This document shows positions 454-64,000 of a stretch of DNA of 64,000 nucleotides, one piece after another. Source of the DNA: Bilabrum cf. latius (taxonomy: Eukaryota); assembly GCA_965178125.1 (NCBI GenBank), contig OZ237765.1, positions 372,001 through 436,000 on the forward strand. The letters run 5' to 3'. Under the pieces are notes generated by a model. The model did no database searches. It saw nothing but the letters and a program-made list of their open reading frames with translations, and was not told where the DNA came from. How positions within the stretch are numbered: the first letter of the stretch is position 1; every line of letters starts with the position of its first letter. Made by a program: the position numbers and the translations under genes.

Positions 454-3400
454 ATGCAACAACCCGCACAGGCGGCAACGGACGATTCCGAACATGATGA
501 GGGCCTGCTCAACCAAGGCGGGGCCGCCGGCGCAGACCCAGCCTTGGCGGGAAGCAATGAAACTAGCACACACGATGGCGACACCGAAGCTGGCGCTGGT
601 GCAGCAGGCGTTGGTGGCAGCTCCACAGGAGAAGCGGTTTCGTCCTTGTAGCTGACGGCGGAGGCTAGCGAGGCTCCATCAGGTCCGGCGGCGCAGTCTG
701 CCACCATGCGTGAATCCGATAACGGTACGCATGATTCTGATGACGATGATAGCTGGCTGGAGGAAAGCGCGATTCCACCTCCACCGACGGAAGCCGTGCC
801 GCCGCCACCGGTTGTCAAGGACGTGCTGAAGCGCATGCCGGCCCCGCGGGGCGCGGGGGCTGAAGAGAGCAAGACGGGCGAGGGCGAGTCTGATGACGAA
901 GCCGCTGGCGCTGCGGGTCGCCATGCCGGCGAGGAGGGCAAGGAGGAGCAGGAGGAGGAGCCAGACGACGAAGACGCCGCCGAGGTGCGAGGGCGGTTCG
1001 AGCGCACAGCCCGCGAGGCGGAGATTGTCGTCGGGGTGGTGTCTCCAGCTGCCGCGGCCGCGCAAGAGGCCGCTCTAGAGGCGGCTCGGCTGCGGGACGC
1101 CGAGAGGTCAGCCCGTGACTTCGCCCGGCGCGAGGCCTCTCTCGCTCGCTTGGAGGAGCAGGCGAAGCGCCGAGTGGACGCCACGCAGCAGCAGGCCGCC
1201 TCGGAGCTGAGACGGCGAGCCAGGGAGGCGCGGGAGGGCAGGGAGGGGGAGGAGGAGGCGGTGAGGCGCGAGTACCGGCGGGCGCAGGCAAAGCTCGTCA
1301 CGGCGCTGGAGCAGCAGCAGGCCATTGTCAGCGAGAAGTACGGTGTGCTCAAGTCCGAGAAGGAATGGGAAATTGAGGGGAAGCTGGAGGAGGTGGTGGG
1401 TCGCAGGAGGCACGGGGGCAGCGACACCTGGCGGGACGAGAGCACCGGTGCTGTCAGGAGGCTGCGAGTGGAGTGGCGAGATGTGCCCTAGCCTCTTGAG
1501 ATCCGGTTGCACCAGATCCGGGCTCTCAAGGGCAAGGCAAAGGCAGGCCGGTACGCCTTGCTGGTGACCCTATACGACCGCCTCGGGGGCACTCCCATGC
1601 GCTGGAGCCGACTGGGCCTCAAGAGCGGGCTGGCCTCGGCTGCCAGGCCAGGGGCCTCGAGGCCGGTCCGGCACCGGGGCCGGTTCTACGATACGGAGCT
1701 TGATTTCAGGGGATAGAAGGTGTACGCGGTGAGTCCGCCGGAGGCCTCGCTGAAGCCCTCGCACGTGTTCGTGATCGAGCTGTTCCGACTGGGGTCCAGG
1801 CAGGACCCCGTCGACACTGTCGTTGGGTGGACGGCCCTGCCCGCAGCCGACGCGAATCTGAGAGCTGCTCGGGGCCGGTTCCGACTGCCGGTGCTGCGCG
1901 GCGAGGTGGACCCCACGCTGGACCAGTACCGCAAGATGGAGTCTGCCATGCTGGGCGACCTGGACCGGTGGCTGGCCAACCTGTACCTCGAGGTGACACC
2001 GCTGCCCAGGGAGGCGCTGGACGATGGAGGCGAGCTGCGGAGCGAGTTCGAGCAGGAGGTCAGGTATACTTCCAGGCTGCTGGGGCGGCGGGGGGCACGG
2101 GCGGGGCAGGCGGCCGTCGGCGATGGGGCAGAGGACGGCGACGGCGAGGACGACTCGGGGGGAGAGGACGGGGGGGACGGGGGGGGCGGGGCCAAGGGTG
2201 GGGGTGGGGATGCCGGGGCGGGGGTCGGCTGGAGCGACGGGGACGAGGCAGGGGATGCCTGGGTGGGCGCCGACCCGGATCCCTCCAACGAGCGTGTGCC
2301 ACTCATCAACGCCGACATGCCGCGGGACCGCGTGCTGCAGGGCCTGCAAGGCAGGGGAAAAGAGCTGGAGATGGATGGGGGGTTGGCACCAGCGTCTGCC
2401 TCATCGAAGGCACCCCGGCGCGGAGGCCGGCAGGAGACGGACGCTCGGGTGGCTAAGTAGGCAGACATCACCGATGCGTCATCATTGTCCAACCTAGGCT
2501 CTTACGCCTTTGCCGTGTCTCGCTAGGACCAGCTCGACCAGACCGGGGGACGCCCCCTACCCGAAAGCACCCGCAAATATCGCTACTTGCAGCAGGAGCT
2601 TTTGGCTGACCTGTCTCTCTCCAATTGGCAGACGTTCGAGTTCTGGATGGAAGTTTTGCTGCTTGTTTGCGCTCTCTACCTGCGCATCTACACGCACTAC
2701 CTGGCGCAGTGGCTCTACTTGCAGTGGCTTCGTGTTCCAGTGTACGAGTTTGAGCCGACAGGTTATAGCGTGAACCTAAAATACGTCGGTAACGTGCTGC
2801 CAATGGAATACGAACTTGGATCCGTCATTTGGGGACCGCTCGGAAACTTGGCTTTGTTCGGCGTAATGGCATTGATCGCCTACTTGTCCATAACAGCTGT
2901 TGGAACATTTCCGGAGAGCCTATCGAGGTTCGTTGCTTTTTTTGGAATTGCCGTGTGCTTGGATCCTGCGCTGATTTTGATCGTAGATGCAGCTGCTGGC
3001 AATTATGATTGCCTTTCGGATCGCTTTCCCGAATGCCAGAGAGATCTGGCATCTCCAGAGTGCGAGTGTTATGAGGGAGACGCTTTCAAGCTGTACTTCA
3101 GATTTTTACGCGATGAAGGAAGTGGCATCGTTGGTATCATCATGACGGTTTTTATATATGTGGTTTTGTTCATGCTGGCAGCCTTTGGTCTCTATGCATT
3201 TTTGTTGCATCTTCATATGGATGGCAGGATGCTAGATCTCTATAGAAGGCTTCATTCTCCTGAGGAAAGCTTCACTCTACCACACGACATGGAGGTTAGC
3301 GCAAAAGAGTTGCAGGATGTTGTGGGCAAGGCAAGGAGGTGGAGGGGACCAAAAGGGACTCAGCGGAAAATAGCTGTATGTGAGTATGTTCTTACAGACC

Positions 3401-3642
3401 CGCTAGATGACCACTTCTAGGAAGTTACAACGCATTTAGTTGTCTATCACTAGGCGTTAGATGGGAGCAGAGAACTGTTTCGCCACTTTTTGAGACTTCC
3501 AGATGGCACCATTCTTGAAGTGTTTGGTTCGATGGAACAATTTGTTGGTGCTCGAACCAAGGCATTGCAAGATATATTGGTGAAGGGGGATGGCACTGAG
3601 CCTGGTGAAGAACAAGTTGATGAATTGTTCAGGGGAGTATAA
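454..3642 (+). CDS. OFCC1-like (orofacial cleft 1 candidate) multi-pass membrane protein, about 1062 aa
   Basis: ORFs 409, 706, 1507, 1720 and 2587 share one frame, joined by 7 TAGs (649, 1489, 1714, 2458, 2524, 3418, 3451), ending TAA 3640-3642. The segment VP*PLEIRLHQIRALKGK...RYALLVTLYDRLGG..RWS and the C-terminal TM region (HYLAQWLYL, MDGRMLDLYRRL, RELFRHFLRLPDG) resemble OFCC1 homologues as I recall them. Confidence 0.75.
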
Positions 3643-3701
3643 TTTTCAAAGTTCAAAAAGTAAAGGGTAGATAGAGTATCAAGCACAGCAATCGATCACT
3701 C

Positions 3702-6700
3702 TCAAAATAATCTCAGCCTCCTGGTATTTGTACACAAGTTTTTCTCACACCCGCAACTCCGGAAGCCTTTTGTCGATGTGCCCAGGTCAACTGCGAACTC
3801 AGGCTCCGATTCAGATTCTTCTAAATCGTCTGGTATTCTCTAGTACTGTTCCGCTGCATCTGTTGTAAAGCAGCTCGATCCACAAGCTGAAGTGCGACTG
3901 ATTGCACGATAAGTATACAATAGAAGGGAGGACAACACCACGCAAACAGAAGACATTGCCATAGCAAGTCCGGCAAGCTCTGGTGGAAGTATTAACCTTG
4001 TTGCTGGGTAAAGTGCTCCTGCTGCGACTGGGATCCCAAGAGCATTGTAGATGAATGACAAGATCAAGTTCAGTTTAATCCTGCCGAAAACTGTTGACGC
4101 CAAATCGATTGCAACCACTACATCGTCGAGCTTTGACTTAACGAGGACAACTCCAGCTGCTTCCTTTGCTACATTCGTTCCAGTCCCAACTGCTATTCCA
4201 ACATCGGCAGCCGCTAAAGCTGGGGCGTCATTGATGCCATCTCCTACCATTGCGACAGTCTTGTTCTACTACAACCGCAAGACAACTGCCTACTTATCCT
4301 CAGGCAGTACCTCTGCGATGACATTCGATTCGGGTATCCCAAGCTGTCTCCCAACTGCCAAAGCTGTCAATTTGTTATCACCAGTAAGCATCGTGACAGA
4401 TACGCCAAGGTCAGCTAGGTTGCGAACAGTTGCTTTCGATTCTAACCTTAGCGAATCCATCATACCAATCAAACCTACAACTTGACTGTCCTTGCCAACC
4501 ACCACAACAGTTCGACCACTTCTTTCAAGCAAATTCAAGTCATGCTTCATTTCAAGAGAAACCTACAATCCGCATTTTCGCATCCATCGAACCGTTCCAA
4601 CACACACAGTGCCTCCGTTATAGTTGCATTTGACTCCAAACCCTGGCTAACTTTCATACTCTTCTGCTTGCAAAGAAGCTAGATCGACGAAGCTTGAAGC
4701 GCACTTTAGTATTGCCTACGCAAGCGGATGAGTTGATCCCAATTCTGCCAGTGCGGCTGTTCGAACCACTTCCTAGAACCTCTTGATCGTATCATCACCT
4801 CGGAACTTTACAGATGCCGTTGATTCCGCTTCTATGCCATCCAATGGCGTAGATCCAGTTCCCGATCCCGTGCTCTTCCGAGCGGCGCACAGGCATTCCT
4901 CGGGATTGCATGTGCATGGATCGCCAGATGCCGAGCTGCTCGCACAGCATCCGCTACCAGTACCGCCGCTGCCAGGAGACTGCAGCGAATCGCCAGTTGC
5001 CGCCACATCTGCTTCAAGTGGGCACTGAGATGGTTCCGCGGTAATAGAAAGTATCGATGAACCGGTCATCTGCATGCTCGTGCCACTCGCAGCGCGGCTT
5101 GATGGCTTCCTGCACGAATTAGCTGGTACACTAGGGGCAAGTATGATGTCAGTCACCACCGGCTTGCCTTGCGTGAGCGTGCCCGTCTTGTCAAATATCA
5201 CTGTGTCAACGCCAGAGAGGGTTTGGATCTCTGCGGCTCCTTTGAACAGGATTCCCATGCGCGCACCCACCCCGGTGCCAACCATGACTGCGGTAGGGGT
5301 GGCCAGCCCCAGGGCACAAGGGCACGAAATGACCACCACGGCAAGCGAAAACCTCAGCGCCAGGAGCCACGGACTCTGGCCTTTGGGCACGTATCCGGCA
5401 GGGGCCCAGCCCTGCGACAGACACAGGCCCCACGCCAGGAAGACCACGGCAGCTGCGATCAGCACCCCCGGCACGAACATTGCACTGACACGGTCCGTGA
5501 AGTCGTGGATGGGAGCCCGCTGCTCCTGGGCCTCCTCCACCATCGTCACGATGCGAGACAGCTGCGAGTCAGCCCCCAGTCGCTCCGCCCGCACCACCAC
5601 GCAGCCAGACACGAGGGTCGTCCCGCCCGTCACCTCGCCGCCCGGGCGCTTCACCAGCGGTGCGCTCTCCCCAGTCAGCATGCTTTCGTCGGCCTCGGCT
5701 GCCCCAGCCAGCACAGTCCCGTCGGCCGGCACCCTGTCCCCCTCCCTGAGCTTGAGAAGATCGCCGGCCCCCAGCAGCTCTGCACGCACGGTGACCTCTC
5801 TGTGCCCCGCGTGGGAGGTCGCGTCCAGAATGCCCAGCGCGATTGCCTCGGGGAGTGCCTTGATTTCCGAATCCGAATCGCTTGCAGTGTCTGCACTGGC
5901 CTGCTTGCCGAATTCAGCCGCGTTCAAGCCCCCGACAAGTGCACTTGCCCCAGCACCACCGGCACCACTGGCCCATTTCGCGCTCCTGCTCATCTCGATC
6001 TAGTGCCCGCCATTGCTACCAGGCAAGGCCGCAGAAGCTGCCGCGCCACCAATTGGCGATGGTGATGTAGACCTGGATTGCGCGCCTTCATTCCCCGCAC
6101 CAATAGGCTCCAGCACAGTGGCCTGGTCCGGCCGCAGCCGCAGCAGCTCAGTCACAGCAGAGGAGGTTCTGCTCTTGGCCAGCACCTCGAGCAGCTTACC
6201 CAGGCTCACGAATGTAAGCAGCAGAGCGGGAGTGTCGAAGAAAGTCGCCGGTTTCTTGCCGTCACCAACCCCAGCCGCGAAGAGCCCCAGCTCCAGCACG
6301 CTCGCGAGATACGCCACTGAAGTCCCCAGGGCAACAAGAGTGTCCATGCCCATGCGACAGCCGCCACGGAGACCCCGCCAGGTGCCCTCGTAGAAGGTCC
6401 ACCCCACAGTGCACTGCACCACGAGCGACAGCGCCGCCTGCGCCACGTGTCCGCGGGGCAGCCTCTCCACCCCGAACGTGCCCTTGTACAGCTCTCTACC
6501 ACCAGCCGAGTCGCGGGGCACCATCGACAGAGCAAAGACCGGAACTGCTAGCATAGCCGCGACAATCAGCCTCCACACCCACGCCCACAGCGCGGCCCGT
6601 TGTTCCCTGGCGGCTGCCTCGAGACGCTCCTCGCTCGATCCCCCCGCCGGACCAGCTTCGAACCCCGCCGCCTCCACCACAGAAACGAGCTGCCGCAGCG

Positions 6701-7562
6701 AGATGGCAGCTGGTGCGGCGGTATTCCCCGCGCCCGATGCCGCCCCGGCAGGGCTGAGCTTCACGATGGCAGAGTTGGTAGCAAGGCTGACTGCAGCAGA
6801 CTGCACGCCGTCCACGGCCTCGAGCGCCCGCCGCACGGCCCCCGAACAGGAGGCGCAAGTCATCCCGTCGACACGTAGCCGAATTTCACCCTGGTTACCG
6901 CCTGCAGTGCCCCCCTGTGACTCGCCACCAAACGCCTCCCCGGCGGCGAGCCGGGCATCGAACCCTGCCGCTTCGACCGCCGGGATGAAGCCGGCCTCGT
7001 CTGCATCGGATGGAGCATACCGCACGACCGCAACGTTCGTCGCGAGAGAAACACTCGCATCATGCACGCCATGTAGTGCGGTAAGGGCATTTCGAACCGC
7101 AGTGGAGCAAGACGAGCACACCATCCCGTCTACCTTGATGCGCACCACGGATTCCTCCTGAGCGCTTTCCACCAGCGACGGCGATTTTGCTGGTGTGCTG
7201 TTGTTAGAGCCTAGCATACTTCCTCGACCCCCAGAGGCTTCACTGGCCTAACTTCCAAGCAGGCTGCTCTGTTCAGAGTTCAGCTGATTCATAGCAGAGT
7301 GCGTCGGCACGTGATACTCACGGTCGTGCCCGTCGCTGCCCTCACTCCCTACACCAGGGACAATTTTGGCATCAAACCCGGCAGATTCAACTGCATCAAT
7401 CATCGCCTGTTGGCTGGAAGCGCTGGAAGCACCCACAGTTGCGCTGTTCGGCAACGAAACCGATGCAAACTCTACCCCGTCAACTCGAAGCAAAGCGCTT
7501 TTAACTGTCTTAACGCAATGCTTGCAAGTCATACCATCAATCTAAAGATTAAATTCAGGCAT
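3702..7562 (-). CDS. Copper-transporting P1B-type ATPase (ATP7/CopA/RAN1 type), about 1286 aa
   Basis: One frame from ATG 7562 to TGA 3702 through 11 TAGs. Three HMA domains (GMTCKHC, GMVCSSC, GMTCASC), [39 protein letters not shown], and the YN and MAMSS Cu(I)-site motifs. Confidence 0.95.
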
Positions 7563-7741
7563 GGCTTGGTTGATAGACGACTGAATATCGCTCTAAATTC
7601 TGGCTAGAGAGCGTCGACGTCCCTTCACCCCGATCCGCGAAAGGAATGACGAGTGGCACGCACCAGGAGTGGGTTTGCCGATTCGACGCAGTTTATAGCC
7701 GAGCAAGGGAGATGATGAAGACGTGCCGTTAACCTTTCGCA

Positions 7742-10700
7742 ATGGAAACAGTATCTGCTGTTGCTCGCTTGGTTGCCCCCCTCTTGTCGTGGGCTTCCAC
7801 GCAGGACGAACGCACGGAGCAATCGCAGAGCGTTGCCGTGCCCAGTGGTCGACCTCTCCGCGAGTCACAAGGAGGATTTGCCGGCCAGACGGTAGAAGTC
7901 GGAGCGGAAGCGAAAGATAGTTCAGCTGTACATGCATTGGCTGTTGGTAAGTAGGCTCGTACCCGCAACTGCAAGCCTGGAACAGCCGGTGTATTCCTCA
8001 GCCAACGGCAACCTAGTCGACTGCGAAAAGCGGATCTACTCAGGGAATTCCCCGCCCCGATTACGCCTAGTTTATGCCCTGCTCCATCGAGACTGGTGAG
8101 GGATTTCTTGGGCCCTAAGGATCTTGCCTCGCTCGCCTCGGTGAGCACGGCTTGGGCGGCGGGAAACTATTTGAGCCGCTTGGACAAGACATTTGGCGAT
8201 CAGACCCTGGACGAGACATAGAGAGGTGTGCACAGCGTCATGCATGTCGATGCAGCGCTTGCTGCGACTGCCCTCGGTGTACTCCCAGCGGCTGATCCTT
8301 CCCCCGGACATTCGGAGCGAGCTGCAAGCGGAGCGTCCGAGAGCAAAATCGAGCACCCTCCGCTCGATAGCGAGGACAAAGCATGCGCTTCACCTGGAGC
8401 AACCAAAGAACACGACCGTGCAGCCCCAGGCCCAACAGCAGGTGCAGGCCTGGTGTCTCCGGAAGAAGCCAGGCGTCATGCCGTGGCAGTCTGCCTCGCA
8501 AGGGGCCAGCTCAGGCTCGCCCTCACTGCCCTGCACCTGCGTTCCGACGCACCCATGGGCATGGCACCGGGCAGGGAGCCTGATCCCAGGTGCCACTACC
8601 CCCGCCTGCTGCAGGCCGCCCGATTTGACAAGGAGGGCCCGCAGGCGGCGCTGGAGGTACTCGGAGCCGTAAAGGCAACTGGGGCACTGGCGACTCCGGA
8701 ATTGTTCCTTGGAGTCATAGAGGCACTCATCACGGCCCCTCGATTCGCGGTGAAACACGTGCCCAGCGTGCTGGCGGACATGGCGGCTCTCGGCCTGGGC
8801 GCCCCGCGAGCGCTGGCCCTGGCACTGCTTCAGTTCGAGATGGCGGCAAGGCTCGTGTCGGCGTCGGCCCGGTCAAAGCGAGGGCGCACCAGGGCGCAGA
8901 TGAGGCGCAAGCGGAAACAGGCGCACGTAGGGGCGGGTGCGGGGAGCAGCATCGTGTCAGATGGGACGTCGGCATGCCAGGGGCGGGAGCTGCTGGGCGC
9001 CGATGGCATGAGTCAGAGTCAGAGCCACGGCTAGAGCAGGGGCGGGAGAGACAGACCAACGGGTGCCAGAGGGCGAGCGGGCACCGTGTCGACTCAGGGA
9101 GACACGGTGAGGAGCGCGCTGGAATTTCCAAATGGGAATGCAGGGCATGTGGCTGGCGGTCAAGGCTCGTCCAACGGTACCCAGGATCCGTATGACGGCA
9201 TCGATGAGGCAGCAATGGCGTGGCTTGTGCCCACCTCAGCCGGTGCCGCTGCTGCTTCATCGGTGGGGCGGTCAAAGGCTAGGGGCACCAGCAGGGGGGC
9301 CGTGGGCGCGAAACATGGCGGGACCCGAGATGCACCTGAGTTTGAGGCCTAGACGATTGCAGGTATGAAGCAAGCAGCAGGGCAAGCAGCAGGCAGCGGA
9401 GAATTGCATGGATGTGGTGCGTAGCCGTCCTCTGGCACTATACCGCCGATTCCTGCCCCGAGCCTGCCTGGCTTCACGGCAGCTGCTGTGGACCTAGACG
9501 CAGGCACCCCCGCTTCCGCGATGCACCCAGCCTTGCCCGGCTTCACGGCATCCAAGCTGCCCGCTGCCCCCGAGCACAAGCAAGGGGAATAGGGCGACAG
9601 CAGCTCCCCACGGATAGAGAAAGGGGCGCCAAGGGCAGCCACGGATGCCGCACAGTCCGAAGCTGGTTAGACACGGACCAGCAAGGGCTCCGGTCGGCGG
9701 TCGAGGCGACTCAGGAGCAAGGCGGTGTCAGCTAGGCGGGCTGCGTTGGAGTGGTACGGCAGCAGGGGGCGGGGCCTTCCAGGAGTCGTCCTGCCAGCGG
9801 TGCCCTGTGCCAGGGGTGAGGAGGACCAGGGCGGGTCCAGGTCAAAGTCGGCGTCTGCATCCAGCAAGCCTGTCGCGTGGGTGCAGGCTGCGCCAGGCCC
9901 CCAGCCGGCCGCGCCTAGCGGGGAGGGCAGTGCAGGAACTGGCACCCGCGTGCAGCCTGGCGGCGCATCTATGCCTGTGATCGGGCTGGATGCAGGCGGA
10001 GAGGATCCAGAGGGGAGCGCGCGCGCACTGGTGCCAGGACACGATGCGCACGAGGATAGATCGGCCGGGTGTCCCTCTGTTGCGAGGTCGGTCGTGACCA
10101 CCCAGTCCGCTACTGCCGCCACCGGGCCGCCCCTGCTGCCATTCCCCCGTCGAGCGATCGATTTTGTGACGTGGGCGAGGGCACTGACCGGGTGCCCGCT
10201 GCGCCGAGTCGGGTCGTTGGTGGCGAACATGCAGCAGCAGATGGACTCTGCCGGCAAGTCTACCGGCAAGTCTGGCGGGAAGAAGGAGCGACGGTCCAGC
10301 GAACGAGCGCACGGTAGTGCTTCTGTATCTGCGGGAAAGCGAGAGCCACGATGCCCCTAGCAATGTGCTGCTGGGAATGCCGGATTGCAAGCGCTGCCAG
10401 CGCAAGCGCCCGAGCCACCCGACACCAAAGGCCTGGGGTCCCACTCTAGGCAACCAGTACGTGCTATGCAGGTGCCAGGCTTCAACGCCGAGCCGGCTGC
10501 TCCCATGGAGGGCTAGCCTGGCGGCGGCGTGCCATTGTTTGGGACGGGAGGGCAGGGGAGGCGGCCAGCCAGTGGCTTGTCATCTATGCATGCTTCCCCT
10601 GCGCGGCGGTCGCGGGCTGGTACGGGCGATTCGAACGTATCTGCCAGCACAGATGCGGCCGGGTCAGGGCGTTCGAGGAAGAGGAAGCGTCGCAGGAGGA

Positions 10701-11497
10701 GGCGCGGGCCCAGCGATGGCGAGACCGGTCTCCTGGGATCGGCCAGTGGCATTGACGGCGCATCCTCCGTTCAGACCGGCAGAACGAAGAGCACAACTGC
10801 CAGCAGCCGGGTGCAGGCACCAGGCAGGTTCTCGCCACCCAGTGGGGGCATGCAAATGCCGATGATGGTGGGTTTGCAGCAGCCTGGCGGCATGCTGATG
10901 CATCGTACCACCCAGCAGCCGCCCATGGGCTTTTAGGCAGTCCCCGCTCTCCCCATTGCGAGTGCTACCGCCGCTCCGCTGCAGGTATCAGGCCCCCGAT
11001 CAGCCGGGGCACACCCCGACATGCGGACAGTTCACCACGGCGTGCATCATGCCCGTGCGCTGCAGCCCCCTCTCGTAATGCAGGGGGCGGGCCAGCAGCA
11101 GTACACATCCGGGATACCTGGCGTTGTGGCTTCGCAGTTCCCATCACCGGGTGCAGCACTTGCCCGCGGGGCTCCCGCTAGACTTGGGCCGGTATCTGGC
11201 GACGGAGCTGCCCCTTCTGCCGATACTAGATCCCCTGCCTCATCTCTGCGGATTGACAGCAAGCCATCCACGGGCCTGCCGGTCGTGTCCTCAGGGTTCC
11301 GCCGATCTCGCCAACGAGGGTCACGGTCGGCGCTTCTTGGCGGGGACTGGAGCGACGGGAAAGACCAATCCAGGGCGACAGCGGCTTCAGGTGGCCCCAG
11401 CAAGGGACAGAAGAAGAAGGGAGGGTCAACCGGGAGTGCAGCTGCGGTGGAGGAAGACATGCGCAGCCGATTCGGGCTGGACCTGTCCTTCCTATGA
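7742..11497 (+). CDS. Large low-complexity protein with N-terminal F-box-like and PPR-like helical segments, about 1250 aa
   Basis: ORFs 7742, 8228, 9086, 9725, 10529 and 11021 share one frame, joined by about 10 TAGs, ending TGA. LVRDFLGPKDLASLASVSTAW resembles an F-box; YPRLLQAARFDKEGPQAALEVLGAVKATG resembles a PPR motif. An intron may start at GTAAGT near 7947. Domain calls are weak. Confidence 0.6.
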
Positions 11498-25916: not shown

Positions 25917-25948
<32 letters not shown>

Positions 25949-34717: not shown

Positions 34718-34865
34718 CTCAACCGAGAATTTGAAGCCACGGGGCTTGAGAAGTCTGCTTCCGCAACGGGTTCATTCGCATAAACTACTCGCAACTGAAT
34801 CACACAAAACCAGATTGTTCTTGAACGGCAACTGGGCCAATACTGTTGGAGATAAAGCACTACCA

Positions 34866-42729: not shown

Positions 42730-42734
42730 GCGCT

Positions 42735-43199
42735 TCACTCACTCCTTCGGTGGATGGGAGCCAGCTTCCCAGCGGCTAGCCTTTCAATGCTTTCTTCCAG
42801 TCGCCCGAGAGTGCGGGAGAGTTCGAGGGCTTGCCGCTAGGTTGCTGCCGCCGACTATCTTACAAGTGACTCTGACGCTGCTGCTACGCTTTCGTGCGCT
42901 CGCGAGTTTAGGCGGCGCCGATGCAATGCAGCGTCTTGCGCAAGAGCCACCATGAACTGCGTTACATCGTCTGCAGCTTCCATAGCAAGGACGAGTTTCG
43001 TTGCGTGTTCTTTAAATTCTGCGTTTGAATCACTTACGGCTGCATCACAACATTTAATTTGCTCCATCGGCAACAATTTGCACTTTTTTGCTCACTCTAG
43101 GGCCTTGCGGAACGTTCGGCATGGTTCGCATTCTGTATTTCTGGCCAAGTTTCGCAAGATCTGCGCCAGATCTCGCGACAAAGTACTTTCAGTATCCAT
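42735..43199 (-). CDS. Possible small helical/coiled-coil protein
   Basis: Frame of ORF 42855..43076 extends through two TAGs to TGA 42735 (...LELSRTLGRLEESIERL...). A GTGAGC donor near 43095 could join MDTESTLSRDLAQILRNL..., but the splice phase is not cleanly resolved. Confidence 0.3.
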
Positions 43200-44516: not shown

Positions 44517-44601
44517 TCACCCAGTCCGCTCTGGTCTTGTCACCCAGTCCGAGCACGCTTGCCGCCCCCGGACTCGATCGGCAGTCCGCTCTGGTCTTGT
44601 G
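44517..44601. repeat. 19-nt direct repeat spanning the AP2 gene stop codon
   Basis: CAGTCCGCTCTGGTCTTGT at 44522 and 44583; TCACCCAGTCCG is also repeated at 44517 and 44540. Confidence 0.75.
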
Positions 44602-49018: not shown

Positions 49019-49157
49019 CCCTTGGGTTTACGTGCCAACGGGCTCGCTCGACGATTTCTGGTTAAGCAAGCACCACACAGAACTGCACCTTTCAAAACAT
49101 CTGGTTCGGAATTGCAGCTTCATTTTGCTCATGCAGCGGCGCTAGCTTGACCGGACA

Positions 49158-52100: not shown

Positions 52101-54104
52101 CCAGCTGCACTACCCCTGCCCGCAATGGATCACATGGCTGTCCTGACGCACTCGTCACGCGCATGCGCCGAGGTGCTGCCCTTGGAGATTGCGGGTACCT
52201 CGACTGCCGATCGCATTGCAATCGCCCTCGCTGCGTCGCGCCTGTGGCCGGACGGCGCGAGCGCTGTGGCGGCCAGGTGCCTCGAAGGGCTGGACCTGCC
52301 TCTGCAAGCGAGCTACATCGCAGGCGCTCCCATGGCTGCAACGGGTGCTGCCGTTGAAGTAGAGGCCGATGCACGGTGCCGTGCTATCGACTTCAGACAG
52401 CATCGATTGCTTGAAGCCGTGGATCGGGCTGTGGCGGGGGCAGCGTCTGGTGCTCAACTGCGAGACATTGCCGGGTTGTCAGTTGCACTTGCTACCGCAG
52501 TCCCACATCTGACTCGCCCTAACTTGTCCGGCGAGATGACGGTTTCAACTGTTGAACGGAATCTCGGGCGACTTGCTTCGCGGCTGGCCCGGCAAGCGCT
52601 GGCCTGTGCCAGGCGCCAGTTGCAGGCAGGACTGTCGGCAAATGAGCAGCAGCGCTTGCTGCTTGCATTGGTTGACGTGCTGTGGTCCACAGCCTGCATG
52701 GGCGCGCTTGATGATGATCTGGCCGCAGGCGTGTGCGCTTGGCTCGAGCATATGGCACAGTCCAGCGATGTTGCTGTTATGTCGGATAGCTTCGGCCATG
52801 TCAGCAAAGCATTGGCCGAGCTGTCAAAGTTCCACCCGCTACTCAGCGCTGCTGAATTCGCGGCAAAGAAATCGGGATCCAGTGCCACCAGCGACCTGGT
52901 GCAGATGCATTCGGCTGAACGGGGCAGGGACGCTGGCGATAAAGGCGACACAGCCGAGGACCAGGCGGCAGGTGCTGGTGTGTACAGCAAGCGGCGGTCG
53001 CAATGGGTTGGCACATCGCGGAGCCAGCAGTATCCGAATGATGACATGCTGGAGGCAGGGATGCAGGAGCTAGAGCTCATGGGGTGCGATGACGGTGACT
53101 CGTTGACCACGGATGAAGCCATTCGCCAGACTTGCGAGGAGCGGCCCAGCGGTGCATCTAGCCTGCTGCAGCAACATGGGGTGCATGGAGATTTCGAGGA
53201 CCTCTTGGACGAAGACAGTCATGCCAACGGTGACGAGAATGTAGATGGAACCGTGCCAGACGAGTCGCAGGGACTGCCTGACCTAGCCACTGGTGGTGCT
53301 GTTTAGGGCTCAGCGGCGGATAGTCCGGCAGCACCGACGTGGCTGCAACGGATGCTTCCTGCGATGGCGAAGCATCCGTTGCAGCCTCACCAATGGTCCG
53401 CAGCACAGGCATCGCGATTACTACAGCTGCTAGTATGGTCTCACGCCCTTGCGTCGAGCGAACATGCTAGCCTGTCGGGCACGCAAGAGGAGGCCGCAGA
53501 TGTGAGCATGGCCAGCCACGAAGGCCTTCCTTCCGGCCTTCAGGCCATAGCCAGGTGCTTTGAATCACCTTGGGCGGTACAGCTGCGCGCCCGCAGTGTG
53601 ACGAGTGATTCGAAGGCCTCAGCCGGTACCAAGGAACTGTTGCGCAGACTGCGGAGCTCGATCCAATATACTTCGGGAGCTCGGGCTCCTTCGCAGGCTG
53701 TGTCGGATGGGAATCAGACCGAGGGAGCACAGGTCAGGGAGCAGCGGGTGGATGCCCGTGTGACGATTGGTATCCGGTCGAGCGAAGGGGTGGTTCTGCC
53801 TGCTCTCGTTCGGCACACCGGGACCGTTGTAGTGGCAGCTGACGAATTGGAGCTAGCCCCCGTGGAGGGGCTCGGTGCGGGGTTCGATCCCGGGTGCCTT
53901 GTGGCCGGCGCTCGCCTTCAGCTAGAGGCTTGGCGGGCGCATGGACTTGAAGTGGTGGTGCTACCGAGGCATCGCCTGCGCAGAATGAAGAACAAGGATC
54001 TGTTCCGGAAGGAGGTGGCTCGGCTGGCAGAGTTGCATGGGGCTGCTCGTTTAGCTGCATTGCTGAGTCTGGAAAGGGGGGCAGGTCCTAATCCGTAGGA
54101 TTGA
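49158..54104 (+). CDS. Probable mitochondrion-targeted helical-repeat protein with C-terminal RAP domain (FASTK-like), about 1648 aa
   Basis: One frame through about 10 TAGs, ending TAG-GAT-TGA. Arg/Ser/Leu-rich, acid-free N-terminus (MLH*WRRGFQQLLRRHLG...). The C-terminus GCLVAGARLQLEAWRAHGLEVVVLPRH resembles a RAP domain. Confidence 0.65.
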
Positions 54105-54250: not shown

Positions 54251-57200
54251 ATGAATTCGAGCAAGCGTATTGACCGTGTGGTGAGCTATGTACGCGCACA
54301 AGCATCCTACCTACTCTCACAGAGGCACAATAAACTAGAACGTATTGCTGCCAGTCTTGTTGCACCTGTCGCAGGCAACCTAGCTCAGGTTCTACTTCTC
54401 GGATGCAAATATGCGTCGAGATAAGTATTTGAAGTCAAACTTGAGCTGCGGTGCGGCACCAGTATCCCTTTTGCTCTCGTTTCGACGAATAGAGCAATTA
54501 CTGTCAGGCCGAACTCTTCCTGAGGCGCTCAAGGATATCTTGCTGGCTGCTCGGTAGACCCCTAATTTGACTGTTGTAGCTTTGTCACCATATTCACGGG
54601 ACTATCTTTCGTCTTCGCGTCAATGGCCACCAAAGAGGGGTGTTCGGTTGACGAGGCGAGGCAATACAATCATTCCGCCCGTCGATGCTCCTAGCAAAGA
54701 AAGTATCGGGTCAATGGAGTGGATTCAATCATAGATGCAGTCTATACAATCATAGGCTGTGCGCTCTCGCCGTGGGCGTGCCGGGGAATCTCAGAGATTC
54801 GACAAAACTGAATCTGCAAGGCAGCTGGCACGAAGTGTCGGCATCCGACGCGTGCTCGCTGACCGTGTGGAAGAGCGACCGGATGCAGTCGTCTACATTG
54901 AAAGCATTGATCCTGGCTTCTGGGACAGAGTCGACTAGCAACAGCTGCGGTCTTTTTTAGAAGGCAGGTTTGGTCCCACGCATTACGTAACGGTGCCCAG
55001 GGACAGAGGCACTGGAGTCCCCTTCGGTTACGCATGGGCAGAATTCAAGCTGATCAAAGATGCGACCCGGGCTGCTGCAGACCACGCGTGGAGTGCGGGC
55101 GGCACCGAGGCAAGGCCAGCCACGGGCGGTGCATCGACAGCAGGTGCTGGCACCAAGCAAGGCCACGATACCAATATCCCACCGCAGCAGGTTCAGGAGA
55201 AAGCCTCGAGCGAGCATGGCCATGCCCCGACTGTTGCTGGCATCAAGCGTCCCCGAGTAGCCGCCCTGAACCCATCGCTAGACGAGGACGAGAGCGAGAA
55301 CGACACGCAGAGCACAGCTCGCGAATAGCCTGACCACAGTGCTGGCGGTGCTTCATCCGCCGCATCCGCTACAACGAAATCAGCAGCGCAGGTCGAATAG
55401 CTGCAAAAGGTCGAGGGGCAGCGCCCGGCCAAGCGAGCTAGAACTGAAGCTGAGGCAGCGGATCGGCCCGTGGTAGATCCAAGCAAGGGCAGCGATGGCG
55501 CTTCGACCGACGGACTGGACGACCAGAAGGGCAATTCTCGAGACTCTGGGCAAGACAAAGAGAGCACTGGTAGATCCAAGGTGCAAGCTTATGCGGTTAG
55601 TGGTGCAGATGGGGATCGCTGGAGCCGAACGCACAGCAACGAGCAACCAGTACTGACCGCCCCTTCGGATGACGGTCCCGAAGAGCCCGCACAGCCAGCA
55701 AAGACCGCCACTAAGCGCCACAGCGCGCTTGCTTAGAGCGTCCGCGACCGCATGGCTCGCATCCAGAGATAGTCTGCCCCGCGGCACGCGTCGCAACCAC
55801 CGGAAGAAGATGGATACTTTCCCGGCACCTAGGCTACTACAGGAGTTGGCGGTGCAGGGGTTGGCGGTGCAGGCGCACCACAGGCCCTACCGCCCGCCCC
55901 TCTTTCTGGGTAGCAAGCGGAAGATGGCCATCACAACACCGACCCCTTCTTGAGTGCCTACCCAAAGCTGCGTTTGCTGCAGAAAACAGGCGTGCTGGAC
56001 GAGAGGGGTGCCTCGATCGGCGCAGTCGAGACCTCCCCTGCTTCGCTCATGCAGGTCCCTCCGGTGGAGATCGTACCCCCGGATCACCCCACGCTCACCA
56101 CTGCGCCCACAAGCTCGGCAGCACCGGCAGCGGAGGGCCTTAAGAGGATGAAGATCAAATCGGGGGCGTCAGACTCTTCCTCTTCCTCCTCCTCCTCCTC
56201 CTCCTCCTCCTCCGCGTCCTTCCGATCGGGTCAACCCGCCACCGGTCTGGCTGCGCCTGCCCGTTGCCTCGCAGACCTAGAGGAAGGCTGGGGCGGGGTC
56301 GGTCTGCGGTCATACAGCGTGCTTGGTACGAAGCAGTATGGGTTGGCATCGGGTAGCCAGCTGGTGGCTGCAGGGGCAGGCCGCGTGGTAGTGCAGGGCT
56401 CAGGTCCGACATCGAACCAAGGCACACGTGACGGTGCCACATACGGCAGTGGTGAAGCGTCGTCGCGGGACGTTTCAGGCGCATCGAACGGTTCCAACGC
56501 GGTCAGATCTCCTCAGTTGTCCTTTGACCCCTCCAGTCTCCGTATCATGACCAAAGCGCAGTACAATGAAATGCAGCAGGCACTCGGGATTGGAGGACCG
56601 GCAGATGAGCCTAAGCTACAGCAGACCTCTCGATCGGCTACTGCTGACCCTGCGTGCATCGTTGTGGTGCAGGGCATTCCCGCGGGCTGCTCGTTCCGTG
56701 ACCTTCGCATCGTGCTGTCAGAAGGGGGCCCAGTCGCCTTCCTGGATTTCACTGAGGCAAAGCGAGTCCAATTGCAGACACATGGACAAGGCCCGCTTCT
56801 AGTGCAGTCACCCTAGGCAACTTTGGGCCAGAATGGGGCGGGCCCTGGACTACTGCCCCTCCCAAAGGATGGTGGGGGTGGTGATGGTAATGGTGCTGGG
56901 AAGAGCGGCGAAAATCAAGAAGCAGGGGAGGTTGCATCAGCATCGGCTGCTACGGCTGGTGAAGCAGATGGCAACCTTGCAGGCGAGCAGTCGCATACTG
57001 CGCTCACTTTGGTCTCCTCCTCGGGTGCTGCTGCGTACGAAAATGTCCAGTCGTCGGTGTTTGGCGAGATGGATGTATCCCCTTTCATGGCCGGGCCTGT
57101 GGTCCATGGCATGAGCGACGGGGACAGCGAAGGCGCCGCTTGGTAGCACTATCGGGGCAGCGGTTTCGCGGGTGGGTCTGTTCCATTCACTGGCAAAGAC

Positions 57201-57500
57201 GGAGCGGGCGAGCCAGGATCCTTAGACCCTGGAGGCACAGGCGTTCTTGGGCTGCTGGAGAGTGGCCGTGGTGCGACTGTTCGATTCAGCACGGCGGCAG
57301 CGGCAGCGAATGCAGTGGCTATGTGGCGGAGGCGGGCTCCGGTCGTAGATGCAGCGGGCCTGCAGGTGACCTCGCTACTCTCCTGGGGCCAGACGGAGGT
57401 AGAGGCAGTGCTAGCACGGATTGGCAACTCTAGGCGTGGATACAAGAAGCGCGGCAAAAAGAGGCGCGGCGCTCGCGGGGCTCCGAAAGCGCGATTTTAA
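54251..57500 (+). CDS. LARP7: La-related protein 7-like (La motif + RRM1 + C-terminal xRRM), about 1051 aa
   Basis: Exons 54251-54280 and 54375-57500. La motif AT*LRFYFSDANMRRDKYL...LLSFRRI; RRM1 VVYIE...FGPTHYVTVPRDRGTGVPFGYAWAEF; xRRM CIVVVQGI...LRIVLSEGGPVAFLDF...ATVRFSTAAAA...EVEAVLARI. About 13 TAGs; ends TAA. Confidence 0.82.
56175..56213. repeat. (TCC/TCT)n tract encoding poly-Ser in LARP7
   Basis: Read directly. Confidence 0.9.
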
Positions 57501-57747: not shown

Positions 57748-60700
57748 TCAAAACCCGAACCCCCCAGGCGTCCCAGCGCCGCGCCCCCACATCCCTGGGA
57801 CACCAACTTGACCGCGGCTATCCTGCCACCCGCCGCTGGTCACAGCTGCCATACCTGCACTGGTTGCAACTGGTGCACCCCTCGAATCGAAGGGCTGAGG
57901 GTGACCCCCAGACCCAGCCCCATGAAATCCGGGAGCTCCGAAACCGACGGGCCTCGGCCCCTGTCCCACCCCTGGGTGCACTGCGTGCCCGGCTCCTGGA
58001 AGGCTGGGTGGCCCTACCTGCGGCCCTGCTGCAAAAGGTCGGGCCATTTGGGCCCCCGGTGTATCGCCAGGGCGCAACATGCCGGGTCCAGCACCAGGTG
58101 CTCCACCATGTCCACCATGCATGCCTTGCTGCTGCATACCAGGACCCTGTGACCACCTCTGCTGGGAATGCTGCTGAGGATGCGACAGCGGTGGCATGCC
58201 GGCGGCGTGCTGATGATACCTATGAGGATGAAACTGAGGTCCAGCAGGGAAACCAGGTGCCCTTGGAACGAACCCACCGTGGCTTGGCGGCCCGACCGTG
58301 CCCATCGGAGTGAAGTCACCCGGCTGTGGGCCCGCCTGGTGCTCTGATGTGGCGGGCCGGTAGAGGGGTGACGCAGAGGGCCACATGCTGCGACTTGCCG
58401 CATTGTCTATGCCCTTGTTAGCACCCGCCATGCCACTAGAGGTGACTGGGCCCGGCCAACCTCCGTACTCGCTGCCATGCCCGCCCCCGCCCCCGCTGTT
58501 GCCGTGGATCCTCCCGCCCGTATGAGTTGGATCATCCCCTAGCAGTCCACGAACAGAGTCTAGCATGCTGGAGGGCATGTCAGCCTCGCCATCCACGCCC
58601 CCAACACCGCCATACGCGCCAGCACCGCCACTGCCACTGCTGCTGACAACGCCCATGCCCCGCAGCTCGCCTTGTGTCGGCATGCGGTCGCGTTGCGGAG
58701 ATGTTTCCGCACTCCCTGTCCCGCTCCCAGGAAGGTTGCCACCAATTCCGGGATGGTGACCGTCTGATGCACTAGCATGCAAGAAACTACCAGACGCTGA
58801 CGTCCGTCCAGACGCCAATCCATCCGCAGAGTGACGGCTGCTTCCGTCCTGACTCAGGGAACCGTTCCCAAAACCTGCATTTGAAAGACCAGTCACTGCA
58901 TCCAGGTCAAATGCGCCGCCCTCCGTGAGCATTATCCCATCGCCTCGCACCAGAGGTATGGCAGCCGAAGCCGATTCCAGCATGGCCGAAGCTCGCGGGG
59001 CAGACCCATGACTTGGGGGATAGCCAGGCGTGTGCTGCAGTGAGAACTCAGCCTGCCCCCCATGACCGGGCATCGCATGGTGGTATGGCCCTGGCGGCCC
59101 TTGATGCATCGCGTGGTGACCGAGGCTGAGCCCACCCATGCCGGCGAGGCCGCCCTGGCCGTGCGCTTGCCCCATCAAGTGCAGTCCAACCGCCCCGCCT
59201 GAACCTTGTAGAAGCGGCGACCGTCCTGAAGACATGCCGCCGCTGCCACTCACCACGCTGCCGGATCCCACGTCCGATGCCACGCTGCCCGTGCCCGTGC
59301 CGAGCACAGCAGTGGATCGAGGTGCAGAGGGCGGGCTCACATGGGCCTCCCCAGCCTTCTCCGCGCTGTCCAGGAGGTCAAATAACTCCTGCCCAATCCT
59401 GGAAGCCTCGTCCACTTCGAAGGACTCCACCTGCCTGCGATGGCTCGGGGCAGACACGCGCCCTGAGTCATCGCTCGGACGCATGACCGTACCCGATGAA
59501 ACTGCCGCACTCAAGGCCGCACCAACATCCATCGGACTGGCAGCCCGACGGTTATGTGGGCCGCCTTGCGAGACAGGCAGCTCTGCTGTCCCAGTGCCGG
59601 ATACAGAGGCCCCTGCAGATGCTCCCAGCGACTCAGACAGGAAAGCCTGCTGGGCAGCAGTAGCAGTGCTTGTGCGCGAGTCGCCCAAGCTGTCCTACTA
59701 ACCTCGGCTGGAGGAACTGAAACCACTGTTTGCCGACTGGAGCTGTCGCCCTGGTAGCGGGGGCACGCTTCGGCGCTACATCGGACTCATTTCACCCATC
59801 AGAACTGGTGAACTTCCCGCAGATGGAGGTGGTGACCCATACTCGGGCTTAGGGTCTGCACCAGCTCTTGTGGGGCGCGAGGGGGAGGCATGGTGCTTCT
59901 TTGGCCTTTGGTCCGCAAGATTTGCGTCATCCTTAGCAGAACGTCGCCGAGACGCTCCTGCCGAATCTTGCACGGAAAAGGAGCCGCTTCTTTGCGACGA
60001 AGAGGAGGTTTCGCTCGAGGGCTACCGACTGCCGCCCTGCGCTTCGATCTGCTTGAGCCTCTTGATCTCGGCGAATGACATGATTGCTTGCTTTTTAGGC
60101 GCAGCTTTGCTGTCTCCTTTCGCATTTGCATGGCGCTCTGCTGCTTGGCCCTTGGATTTGCCCCCGGCGGCTCTGTCGGGCGAGACTGCGGATGCCTTGC
60201 TGTCTGTATCAGGACGTAGAGGCGTGGTGGCAATATCATGAGCCTTTACCCCTTGCAGCTTCGAGTCAGGTGTCTTGCGTCCCGAGTCTGCTGATGAGTC
60301 CGAATCTGCTGTCTTGCGAGCGACTCGCGAGCTCGTTTGCTGCGATTCAACCGTAGCATTTCTGGACTGCTTCGGCAAGGCACTGGGGGTGGAGGCGGAG
60401 GTGCCTCGGGACGAGCCTGCAGGTCGCTGGTGGCTTCCGTTGCGTGTCCTACTTGATAGCGAGGGGAAGTCCTCTAGCTCCATCGTCTTCGAGTTGGCCT
60501 GCAATGGGGATAATGACACTGTCTGTACTGTCGCAGTGTGGGCAGCTTGGACAGCGCTAGATGAATGAGGCACGACAGCTGCCTTGGTTGCTGACTGCGT
60601 GCGCAGCGTCCGCTTCTTCGCTCCATGCGCCACGTCACTTGAGCCTGGCTTGCATGGGGCCTCGGTTTGCATGCCTGTCAGCACCTACGTGGACTTCATC

Positions 60701-63700
60701 TGCCGCAGCGCCTGCCTGGCAGCAGACGGCCTTGTGGCCTTGCTCGATTCTCCCCCTTGGGCGTGTGTGCCGGTGCCCCGCTTCAGCTTGGCTTGACTCT
60801 GGTCTGCGCCAGAGCTGGGAGCATATGTTTTGCTATGCTCGGATTGAGCCGGCTCGCCAGCCAGACGATGCCTGTCTCCCTTATTGCCCATAGGAGAGTG
60901 CTGCGGGGTGCGCCCCGATGGTGCGGCTGCGCCGGTGCGAGCAGCTTCGCGGGCCCTTGCCTCAGCCTCTGCGGCTCGCTTCTCCTCTTCTTTTTCCATC
61001 TGCTCGTTCTTCTACCTTTCAAGCTGCTGCAGCTACTTCGCAGCCAGTGCCCGCTTCTCTTCCGCCTGCCGACGCGCCTCTTCTGTCCGTTTCTCTTGTT
61101 CCTTCTTGGCAGCCTTGGCTACCCTCTACCTCTGAATGCGCGCCTCTGCTTTGGCCCGCTTTGCAGCAGCCTTAGCCTGCTTTCGCTTCTCCTTCTCTTC
61201 GGTCTGCTGCATCGACTGCTGCTTCTCCTCGGCAGCGAGCTAAAGCAGCATGTCGTGCGCCTGCCTCCGCCTCCTGGCATGCACAACCGAGGCCATAGCC
61301 TCACGAGCCGCCAGAAGCCTCACGATGCCAATCCCGGCAGCGAGGCCGAACCTGACCTGCTCCTTCAGTCGCCACTCCACATCCTGCACCATGCCCCTGA
61401 GCCCATCACCCATCTTGGACGAGACCCGAAGCTCCGAGATGGAGGGAAGGTCCATAAGATCATCGTGCGGCTGTTCAACATCAGCAGCTGCGGCAGGTGG
61501 CGCTTGTGCTTTATCCTTGCCTAGGCCTATATGCGACGCATCGGGCCTCGCCAAGGAATCAGACGCAGACCCAACAGCGCCATCACCTAAATCGCCGGGA
61601 CTGCCAGAGCCTGAGCCACTGCTGCCGTCGGCAATGGCACGTTGGTCTGCTACCTGCTCGTTTGTCTGCCCATCCTTTCCAAAAAAGCGGTCATGCAGAC
61701 GGGAAGCGTGCTCGTACGCCCCTTCACTCTTTTCAAGCTCAACCAGTTTCTGCACCAGAAGCCGCATGGAATCTTTGAGTATGCCGAACCCAAACGTGCG
61801 GTTGAGCTGCTGGGCTGCCTCCATCTCCTCTCTGTCTAGCATGTCGGCCGCAAACACGCTCTGTTCAACAACACTACGGCTGCGCCACACGATGCGCCGC
61901 CACTGCAGGTCGTACAGCTTCATCTCGGAATCGAGGAATGCCGACTCATCTGCACGCTCCTGCGCCAGCATATCCTCAATGGATTCGTTCTGCCCGACAG
62001 ACCCCTGTGATTTGCCCTTACCGTCCTCCCCCTCCTGGTCATCTTCAGCATCCTCCTCAGCTCTTTCGCCAGAGTCGGGCTCGCCTGCCGATTCACTGTC
62101 CTTGCCGCTAGCCCCATCGTCGGCCTATCCCTTCGCCCGCGCTCCAGCGCCTGTTTCCCCGGCATCCTCGCGAGCACTACTGCCACTTCTTCCGGAGTTG
62201 CTCTCGCCTTGCTTCTTGAGAGCAGCTCTATGCGCCTCAATCATCATCCGTCGCTCCTTACGCAAGTCACGTACCTTCATCACTGCGTCGAGCGCAGCGC
62301 GATGAGCACTCTCGGAGTCAGCGTGCTCTCTCTCGCCCTCTGACCACGCATCCAAGTACTCCCTTTCCCTCCTGACCATCTGCTCAACGTACTCTTCCTG
62401 ACCCGTTTCATCTTGGTGCCTCTGCTGCGCTGCCGAAGCTAGGGCATCGCTGTTGTGCATCGTCTACCACTCTGCCTCCACCGCCGCTGCGCGACGCGAT
62501 AGAAGCTACTCGCAAAGGCCGTACTATGCAGAGAAGAGCCGCGCAGCACTCTCCACTACGGCGGCAAAAAGATGAGACCTGGCTTCGTCTATCTGTTCCA
62601 ATCGCGTGTCGGCATCTTCGGAAAGCTTAGACAAAATGGCGTGCTGCAGCGAGCCAGGCGTACCCAACGCGCTCGTATCAAGTTTCCCTCCAACCTGATT
62701 CGCGTCAGCTGTCTCGCCGTCAGCGTCTGTGCCCTCGCTTGTGCTCACAAGCCGAGCGTGCTCTCTATCAATTATCTCAAACTTGTCGCGGAGCAGTTCC
62801 AGACGAAGCAGCCCATGCTTGGTGGACTCGAGCGCGTTCCAGATCTCCCTCCTCTGCTCATACCCCTGCTTCCACCGCTGCACGGCCTACCAAACCACGG
62901 CCACGACCTGCACCCTCGGCACGTCGTGCCACAATGGACCGCTATCGTACCAGGGCATGCGGGTGCGGCCCTACAGGTCCTCCATGGACAAATTTAGGCC
63001 GCCTGCAGCACTCAGAGCTGCCACGGCAGTCTGCCTGAAGGGCATGACCACGCTCGAGGCGCCCTTGCCTCCTTTCTTCTTTCCCATCAAACCCGCTGCA
63101 ATCCGCGCCTGGGCAGCGAGGCGCTGTTCCCCGAGATCTAGGACGCTCATCAGCGCATCCACGGGGACGAGGACCCTTGCAGACTCTAGAATGGCCTCCG
63201 GGGTGAGCTCGCTGGGGTCCACTCTGGCTGGCTTGAAGCCCTTGGCGAATGCCTTGTCGTGCGTCCCGTCCTCCCTGGGCGTATCCCTCGCTGCCATCAC
63301 CGCCTTGCCCCATCGTTTCTCCGACTTGGCAACCCGCCCGCTGCTTGCGGCCGACCTCGTGTCGTCGAAGCCCATGATTGCGCTGCCTACCATTGCAGTG
63401 GCAGCTGCTGCAGGGTCGGTCATGGTGTTGTAACCCGCGTTGGCTGCCACCTTGTGCACATCTATGCCACGCACGGGCCCCAGCACCGGCCCGCCCTTAT
63501 CCATGTCCAGCAGCAGCTGCATGGCCCCGCGAGATAGCAACGGAATGGTCCTGCACCCGATCCCGGTAGCAGCGTCAGCCTCGCTGCATGAGTCGTCTGC
63601 TGCGTACATTGGGGCGTCGTGCGACACGCTGATCACCCCAGTCTGGGTAGAGGCAGATAGCAGCATGAGAAGGCAAGTGGTGATCCTTGGATTGAGGGGC

Positions 63701-64000
63701 CACGGCTTGAGGCTTTCATCCTGGCCGAAGAGGCCGACCGTAGCTGCGAAAGGGCTGGCCCTGCTGTATGGCAGCAGGGCATCTGGCTCGTGCCTCAGAG
63801 CGAATGGATCCCTGCGCTGGATGCTCCTCTCGCCCGACTGTACCACCGGGGTGCAATCGTTGATGTCTGCGCCCTCCTTCACGTACTTTGCCGCCTCCAC
63901 AGCGAGGCCTAGTCTCCGTCTTCCTTCAAAGTCACCTGACGGTATGACCACCTTGGCGACCTCTTCCCATTCCTGCATGCTGTCGACCCGCATTGAGGTG
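57748..64000 (-). CDS. Large protein (5' end outside window) with charged coiled-coil and Gly/Pro/Gln-rich tail; function unknown
   Basis: Eight track ORFs (57748 to 62971) share one frame, separated only by TAGs. The frame is open at the window edge and ends TGA 57748. Coiled-coil EEKEKRKQAKAAAKRAK at about 60950-61250. Confidence 0.8.

Follow-up and report, generated by a model that had tools for sequence, protein, structure and literature searches.

In nuclear genetic codes, the stop codons UAA and UAG almost always change meaning together. The coupled code in which UAR specifies glutamine (NCBI table 6) is used by many ciliates, by hexamitids and by some green algae, and ciliates are a known hot-spot for code change. 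In the fornicate Iotanema spirale, by contrast, UAG specifies glutamine while UAA and UGA act as stops; the study describing this code reports 204 UAG codons in 126 genes, and UAA as the end of 104 of 119 genes (PMC5304391). The ciliate Protocruzia tuzeti and two phyllopharyngean lineages likewise read UAG as glutamine and UAA as stop (PMC11687900). Other nuclear codes that reassign UAG alone assign it to leucine (the rhizarian exLh) or to serine (Scotinosphaera) (PMC5304391, PMC11687900). Among viruses, crAss-like and Lak phages translate TAG as glutamine, an arrangement known as 'code 15' (PMC9523058). Here we analyze a 64,000-nucleotide stretch of eukaryotic DNA (Bilabrum cf. latius, assembly GCA_965178125.1, contig OZ237765.1, positions 372,001 to 436,000, forward strand), referred to below as the window, whose genes are crowded with in-frame TAG. 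We consider it highly probable that UAG is read as glutamine and that UAA and UGA terminate translation in this GC-rich nuclear DNA, which probably belongs to a stramenopile related to bicosoecids, and that the same code is used by a relative known from a metagenome.

How does the window compare with these systems? With Iotanema it shares the codon table, the presence of UAG alone within reading frames, the enrichment of UAG at glutamine columns, and UAA and UGA as the sole supported terminators (PMC5304391). Unlike that anaerobic metamonad, whose genes end mostly in UAA, the window has TGA as terminator in 12 of 16 genes, a GC content of 61% and stramenopiles as its nearest named relatives; it holds 123 TAG in 16 long genes, against 204 in 126 genes for Iotanema, and the evidence consists of genomic DNA and contigs of RNA runs rather than of transcripts (PMC5304391). 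The uncoupled reassignment is the same as in the ciliates mentioned, where it has arisen repeatedly (PMC11687900), yet the window organism shows no ciliate affinity in any of three homolog searches. As in exLh and Scotinosphaera, UAG alone is reassigned and UAA is still a stop, while the residue differs (PMC5304391, PMC11687900). Code 15 phages show the same single-codon change, but they rely on suppressor tRNAs in bacterial hosts (PMC9523058), whereas the window is a spliced eukaryotic nuclear locus. The table 6 codes also had a stop captured by glutamine; UAA is a sense codon there and not here. Finally, the window differs from codes of the Condylostoma or Blastocrithidia type in that neither its open reading frames (ORFs) nor the homology-defined frames of its relative contain in-frame TGA or TAA.

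Results

Reading frames under alternative codes

The analysis covers the 64-kb window and a 3.6-kb sister contig, L001. GC content in the window ranges from 57 to 68%. Under the standard code its longest open frame has at most 902 codons, and no frame reaches 1000. When TAG is treated as sense, 11 frames of 1000 to 2728 codons appear; treating TAA alone or TGA alone as sense yields no frame of 1000 codons or more in either case. The summed length of frames of at least 500 codons rises from 3,766 codons under the standard code to 23,061 with TAG as sense, and amounts to 4,272 with TAA alone as sense. Making TAA a sense codon in addition to TAG increases the long-frame length of the window by just 8%; TAA as sense neither lengthens genes nor merges fragments. 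In 100 block shuffles, the longest frame free of TAA and TGA had 856 codons and none attained 1000, and frames of at least 500 codons averaged 0.61 per shuffle, compared with 21 observed.

Codons were counted in 13 single-exon ORFs, each taken from its first ATG (17,201 codons in all). These ORFs contain 120 in-frame TAG; TAA (3) and TGA (10) occur solely as final codons, whereas the two off-frames of the same DNA contain 38 and 74 TAA and 227 and 352 TGA. In the three intron-containing genes, where exons were set by RNA contigs, we found two TAG (GH2), one (GH20) and none (lipase). The total for the window is therefore 123 over 16 genes, in line with the 'about 120' that a previous sequence-only reading of this DNA had counted by hand over the same number of genes, and the lipase gene is the sole one that lacks TAG. 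TAG accounts for 15.6% of the presumed glutamine codons (CAG 485, CAA 165). Codons of the form NNA are 0.19 to 0.41 times as frequent as NNG codons in the window ORFs. The absence of internal TAA and TGA from these ORFs is circular, because those codons delimit ORFs; tests free of this circularity are provided by the frames of L001, which homology defines, and by conserved C-termini. The P1B copper ATPase had been described as keeping all its catalytic motifs; its Pfam domains are recovered across the TAG sites (Table 1). Because up to 15 UAG occur in one gene, read-through would have to be near complete at each site. UAG occurs within genes that are conserved, transcribed and spliced.

Which residue is read at UAG?

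TAG was translated as X in all alignments, so no bias toward any residue was introduced. In the OFCC1-like protein, an alignment of 19 homologs places residues 365 and 440 in columns where Gln is found in 17 of 18 homologs each, while at residue 710 Gln is present in 11 of 19. The four remaining TAG sites are variable or gapped. Residue 1243 of the ATPase corresponds to Gln in 116 of 120 homologs, in a column sensitive to gap placement, as discussed below. Seven further TAG sites of the ATPase could be aligned, where the homologs carry mostly Arg, Gly, Lys, Leu/Val, Thr/Asn, Ala and Lys, respectively, and three are gapped. In the La motif, the TAG at residue 33 coincides with the Gln of La and LARP7 in all five of the printed PDB alignments. 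The kinase-like and PhyH proteins were uninformative on the residue, their TAG sites being variable or unaligned in PDB alignments. Near-invariant columns that hold a TAG number four, and all four are Gln.

Profiles were built with HMMER (hmmbuild) without the query sequence. Fourteen match columns could be scored, and 4 further sites fell in inserts. The summed log-odds are +14.1 bits for Gln, +5.6 for Lys, +4.5 for Arg and +3.8 for Glu. Gln is 8.5 bits above Lys, and Leu and Ser are 26.6 and 15.2 bits below Gln. By these alignments glutamine is the best-supported residue at UAG; the profiles favour Gln and no other residue scores higher, as anticipated from the sequence alone.

A sister contig of different base composition

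P0153, a protein fragment of 238 residues, shares 90% identity with the OFCC1-like protein and ends exactly at a TAG, before a Gln of the window protein. Its source is L001, a metagenome contig of 3,641 bp and 49% GC, in which the OFCC1-like and ATPase genes, again convergent, are represented by their 3' parts (protein identities of 85% and 68%, respectively). The frames of L001 were set by homology and not by stops, and comprise 1,176 codons, among them 11 TAG, 19 CAA and 15 CAG; TAA and TGA serve just once each, to close the two genes. Were TAA a synonym of TAG, the frames should hold some 14 internal TAA, whereas there are none (Poisson P(0) ~9e-7). Because CAA is at least as frequent as CAG in L001 and internal TAA is nevertheless absent, this is evidence without circularity that UAA is not reassigned and that its absence is no GC effect. 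Nor is in-frame TAA as common as in-frame TAG; even this relative of 49% GC has none.

Between the two species, 22 TAG sites could be aligned, of which one is common to both. At the 21 unshared sites, the partner is Gln in eight cases (CAA or CAG), Glu in three, Lys in two and Asn in two, with Leu, Thr, Ser, Asp, His and Gly found once each. Taken together, the alignments show UAG at positions where Gln is conserved, and exchanges of UAG for CAA/CAG from one species to the other.

Where does translation end? The OFCC1-like gene has a TAA terminator in both species, at the point where its homologs end, and the ATPase gene has a TGA terminator in both. In L001 a TAG lies 9 codons ahead of a conserved C-terminus, and in both ATPases a TAG lies upstream of a conserved tail of 45 residues; UAG is therefore read through even near gene ends. 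The proposal that UAA and UGA stay stops is thus borne out both by the conserved C-termini and by the homology-defined frames.

More distant relatives of the OFCC1-like gene (L002 to L005, 44–55% identity) have no in-frame TAG over 366 to 930 aligned residues. Among the sampled sequences, these comparisons place the code change within the clade of the window and L001, to which it is confined. A survey of the stops that close long frames in the distant loci L002 to L009 gave no clear signal on their codes.

L001 resembles the window in the arrangement of its convergent gene pair, which is separated by a 111-bp spacer; the two differ markedly in GC content (49% vs 61%) despite their common code.

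TAG in RNA contigs

Ten public runs matched the window sequence, and four were compared over positions 34001–54000. Contigs of the runs X5 and X7 lack 9 and 7 GT..AG introns, respectively (89–277 nt). X5 and X7 thus contain mRNA, whereas X1, with even depth and no spliced contigs, behaves as DNA. None of the listed runs is on record as RNA; spliced contigs are the sole ground for regarding X5 and X7 as such. The nine removed introns also show that the genome is not intron-free.

In the listed pieces of X5 and X7, 24 of the 27 TAG in single-exon ORFs within 34001–54000 are covered, without differences; the TAG at 46079, 47417 and 49143 lie outside these pieces. Both TAG of the GH2 gene are unchanged in one spliced X5 contig, with no other letters at these sites, so that UAG is kept in the RNA contig as TAG and not as CAG. 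A single base difference was reported, T>C at 51937 in X7, and it lies outside any TAG. Since TAG is kept in the X5 and X7 contigs, RNA editing and assembly error are disfavoured, with the caveat that these are contigs. The same sequence is present in runs from four studies.

X7 also lacks one base at 36219, in one contig of low depth; this and the difference at 51937 are probably strain differences or errors. Over 34001–54000, the runs X1 to X8 represent four organism codes from four studies and contain 0.28–1.00 of the sampled words. The organism could be a flagellate that was co-cultured with others or contaminated their samples, or one that carries several labels in the archives.

Lineage

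The best named match of the ATPase is Cafeteria roenbergensis (E 3e-154), with green algae, plants and archaea ranking behind it. C. roenbergensis is also the best named match of the OFCC1-like protein (50% identity), followed among named sequences by Trimastix and a fish. In a quick maximum-likelihood tree of 34 ATPase sequences, the window and L001 group together with a support of 100 on a long stem, and their sister group consists of sequences from Cafeteria and metagenomes (SH-aLRT 94, from the Shimodaira–Hasegawa-like approximate likelihood ratio test); Hondaea and an MMETSP sequence lie nearby. The GH20 exon is not diagnostic as a taxonomic marker: its best named match is the choanoflagellate Salpingoeca, followed by plants, and Cafeteria is not among its 78 matches. 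None of the three homolog searches (ATPase, OFCC1-like, GH20) revealed a ciliate affinity, and no Rfam family, rRNA included, was found within the window. We conclude from these protein comparisons that the source organism is probably a heterotrophic stramenopile related to bicosoecids.

Gene content of the window

The genes are listed in Table 1. Two antisense ORFs, 3–2501(-) and 22960–24543(-), one of them with 12 TAG, were rejected; they lie opposite real genes and are by-products of GC-rich coding DNA.

Table 1. Genes and ORFs of the window, with in-frame TAG codons and terminators.
Feature	Position	Strand	In-frame TAG	Terminator	Remarks
OFCC1-like membrane protein gene	454..3642	+	7	TAA	single exon; terminator at conserved C-terminus
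P1B copper ATPase ORF	3702..7997	-	12	TGA	Pfam E1-E2_ATPase, three HMA, Hydrolase
ORF	7733..11497	+	10	TGA	no Pfam match
2728-codon ORF	11769..19955	-	9	TGA	cyclic-nucleotide-binding domain (PF00027, E 4e-16)
PhyH-domain dioxygenase ORF	21464..23842	+	5	TGA	
ORF	24282..27989	-	12	TGA	family unassigned; last TAG 43 codons from end
Kinase-like ORF	27667..31479	-	7	TAA	Pkinase match below Pfam cutoff
ORF	32765..34771	-	2	TGA	weak ARM/TPR-like matches below Pfam cutoffs
ORF	34683..36491	+	3		family unassigned; all TAG in X5 contig without differences
GH2 glycosidase gene	36694..39946	+	TAG at 37036, 39788	TGA	introns 38245-38378, 38774-38978
GH20 beta-hexosaminidase gene	40178..42729	+	1 (40360)	TGA	5 introns
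Class 3 lipase gene	43198..44318	+	0	TAA	2 introns; PF01764, E 2e-27
AP2-domain protein ORF	44540..49027	-	13	TGA	11 of 13 TAG unchanged in X5 contigs
1767-codon ORF	48801..54104	+	11	TGA	family unassigned
La-motif and RRM protein ORF	54285..57500	+	14	TAA	
2083-codon ORF	57748..63999	-	15	TGA	leaves window edge; no Pfam match

The 9 introns (38245–43722) cluster in three secreted-enzyme-like genes, GH2, GH20 and lipase; the 13 long genes are single-frame. GH20 and lipase (40178–44318) have the top RNA-contig depth in 34001–54000. GH20 carries one TAG in 593 codons and the lipase none in 283; at the mean density across the window, about 7 per 1000 codons, about 6 would be predicted. Highly expressed genes may avoid TAG, contig depth being a poor measure of expression.

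The GH2 gene shows an apparent +1 frame change near 38120 (38101–38130), between the conserved segments '...LDLYDRL' and 'VVSMPEHRNF...', where four bases replace one codon. It is present alike in the DNA run X1 and in the spliced X5 RNA contig, and could mark a pseudogene that is still transcribed, a programmed +1 frameshift, or a mistake common to the assemblies. The 1767-codon ORF closes with TAG GAC TGA (54096–54104), which would form a tandem stop if UAG still had any terminating activity. In the AP2 gene, two low-complexity segments (45610–45650 and 46671–46702) match many unrelated contigs in all four compared runs, giving loose ends and false joints in the read layout.

Discussion

The longest frames of the window exist only when TAG is sense, its near-invariant TAG columns are Gln, and the 49% GC relative, with frames set by homology, contains TAG and no internal TAA. 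What speaks against reading UAG as glutamine with UAA and UGA as stops? A number of observations weigh on that side. The sample is limited to 64 kb plus 3.6 kb. The column of ATPase residue 1243 hinges on where a one-residue gap is placed. A cruder, count-based log-odds score gives Gln just +0.2 bits and Lys -7.2 (7.4 apart), and most TAG columns are variable. Gln is found in L001 (as CAA, CAG or TAG) at 5 of 12 window TAG, compared with 21 of 28 window CAA/CAG. TAG is not enriched next to CAA/CAG, making up 3.3% of neighbours, against 7.1% for CAA/CAG themselves and a background of 3.7%. The distance from the last TAG to the TGA is just 1, 29 and 43 codons in three ORFs, whose tails beyond that TAG are without homologs. 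The run X5 carries the automatic label 'probably DNA', so its unspliced contigs could be DNA-derived, and Logan contigs lose minority variants, which weakens the RNA evidence. Neither the window nor L001 contains a tRNA gene.

Could UAG have a dual meaning, being glutamine in most places yet ending some genes by context, as stops do in Condylostoma or Blastocrithidia? The three ORFs with a TAG shortly before TGA would fit such a code, and contigs cannot reveal where translation ends. Against it, the C-termini supported by homology (OFCC1-like and ATPase, two species each) all end in TAA or TGA, the TAG 9 codons from a conserved end in L001 must be read through, and no window gene needs a TAG terminator; we regard a dual meaning as unlikely, although it is the alternative to which we grant most. 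A coupled code, with both UAA and UAG reassigned and TAA simply too rare at 61% GC to be seen, would profit from the circular definition of the window ORFs, which are delimited by TAA, and from the scarcity of NNA codons. This explanation fails in L001, where the glutamine codons are balanced and TAA is still missing from the interior, and it is at odds with the TAA that ends the OFCC1-like gene at a conserved C-terminus in both species and with the failure of TAA-as-sense to merge any window gene fragments. We give it very little credence.

Somewhat less improbable than a coupled code, but still a poor candidate, is the assignment of UAG to another amino acid, be it Lys, Glu, Arg or Leu, or its ambiguous decoding. 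Many TAG columns are mostly Lys, Arg, Ala or Gly, and at 7 of 21 TAG sites the partner in the other species is Glu, Lys or Asn. The near-invariant columns and the profile scores nevertheless favour Gln over Lys and the rest, and Gln is the commonest partner between the species (8 of 21), no other residue exceeding 3. The least credible account, to which we attach next to no weight, holds that the TAG are artefactual or corrected, by assembly error, in pseudogenes, or by U-to-C RNA editing to CAG. Our evidence does consist of contigs rather than raw RNA reads, with the loss of minority variants mentioned above. Yet the runs of four studies carry identical sequence, TAG is retained in spliced mRNA contigs, a second species has its own TAG at different sites, and 15 of 16 genes carry TAG with their domains retained. 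A phage or prokaryote using code 15 was ruled out by the GT..AG introns and the eukaryotic domains. We therefore continue to read UAG as glutamine, with UAA and UGA as stops.

How might such a code operate? Wobble rules and other recoded eukaryotes suggest that UAG would be decoded by a tRNA-Gln whose anticodon, CUA, differs from that of tRNA-Gln(CUG) by a single base. C34 of this putative tRNA would pair solely with G and so spare UAA. By the same reasoning, an eRF1 with weakened recognition of UAG would no longer compete efficiently at that codon.

Judged by its sequence relationships, this looks like a known code in an apparently new lineage. We lean, with modest confidence, towards a stronger statement, namely that it is the first non-canonical nuclear code in stramenopiles and an independent, unreported origin of uncoupled UAG = Gln, in a bicosoecid-related flagellate clade of at least two species that differ by 12 GC points. 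In the searched full-text literature, with paywalled papers and supplements outside its reach, no nuclear code change was found for stramenopiles or bicosoecids. The sequence-only reading had already suggested an independent and possibly undescribed origin. This is plausible: the best named matches of two genes and one single-gene tree point to stramenopiles near Cafeteria, which is none of the known UAG-only lineages; GH20 carries no such signal.

Annotation under the standard code breaks nearly every long gene here, and the relative is known in protein collections only as fragments, such as P0153. For this lineage, annotations in public databases, counts of genes and estimates of completeness will be wrong unless a table with TAG = Gln is applied. 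Uncoupled cases test why UAA and UAG change jointly, and a case from a lineage other than ciliates and anaerobic endobionts would count as a further independent origin. Existing DNA and RNA runs, together with a sister species of very different base composition, permit a comparison of tRNA-Gln(CUA) and of changes in eRF1. If our reading is true, this lineage would provide a free-living, possibly culturable system in which to study how UAG, and not UAA, escapes eRF1.

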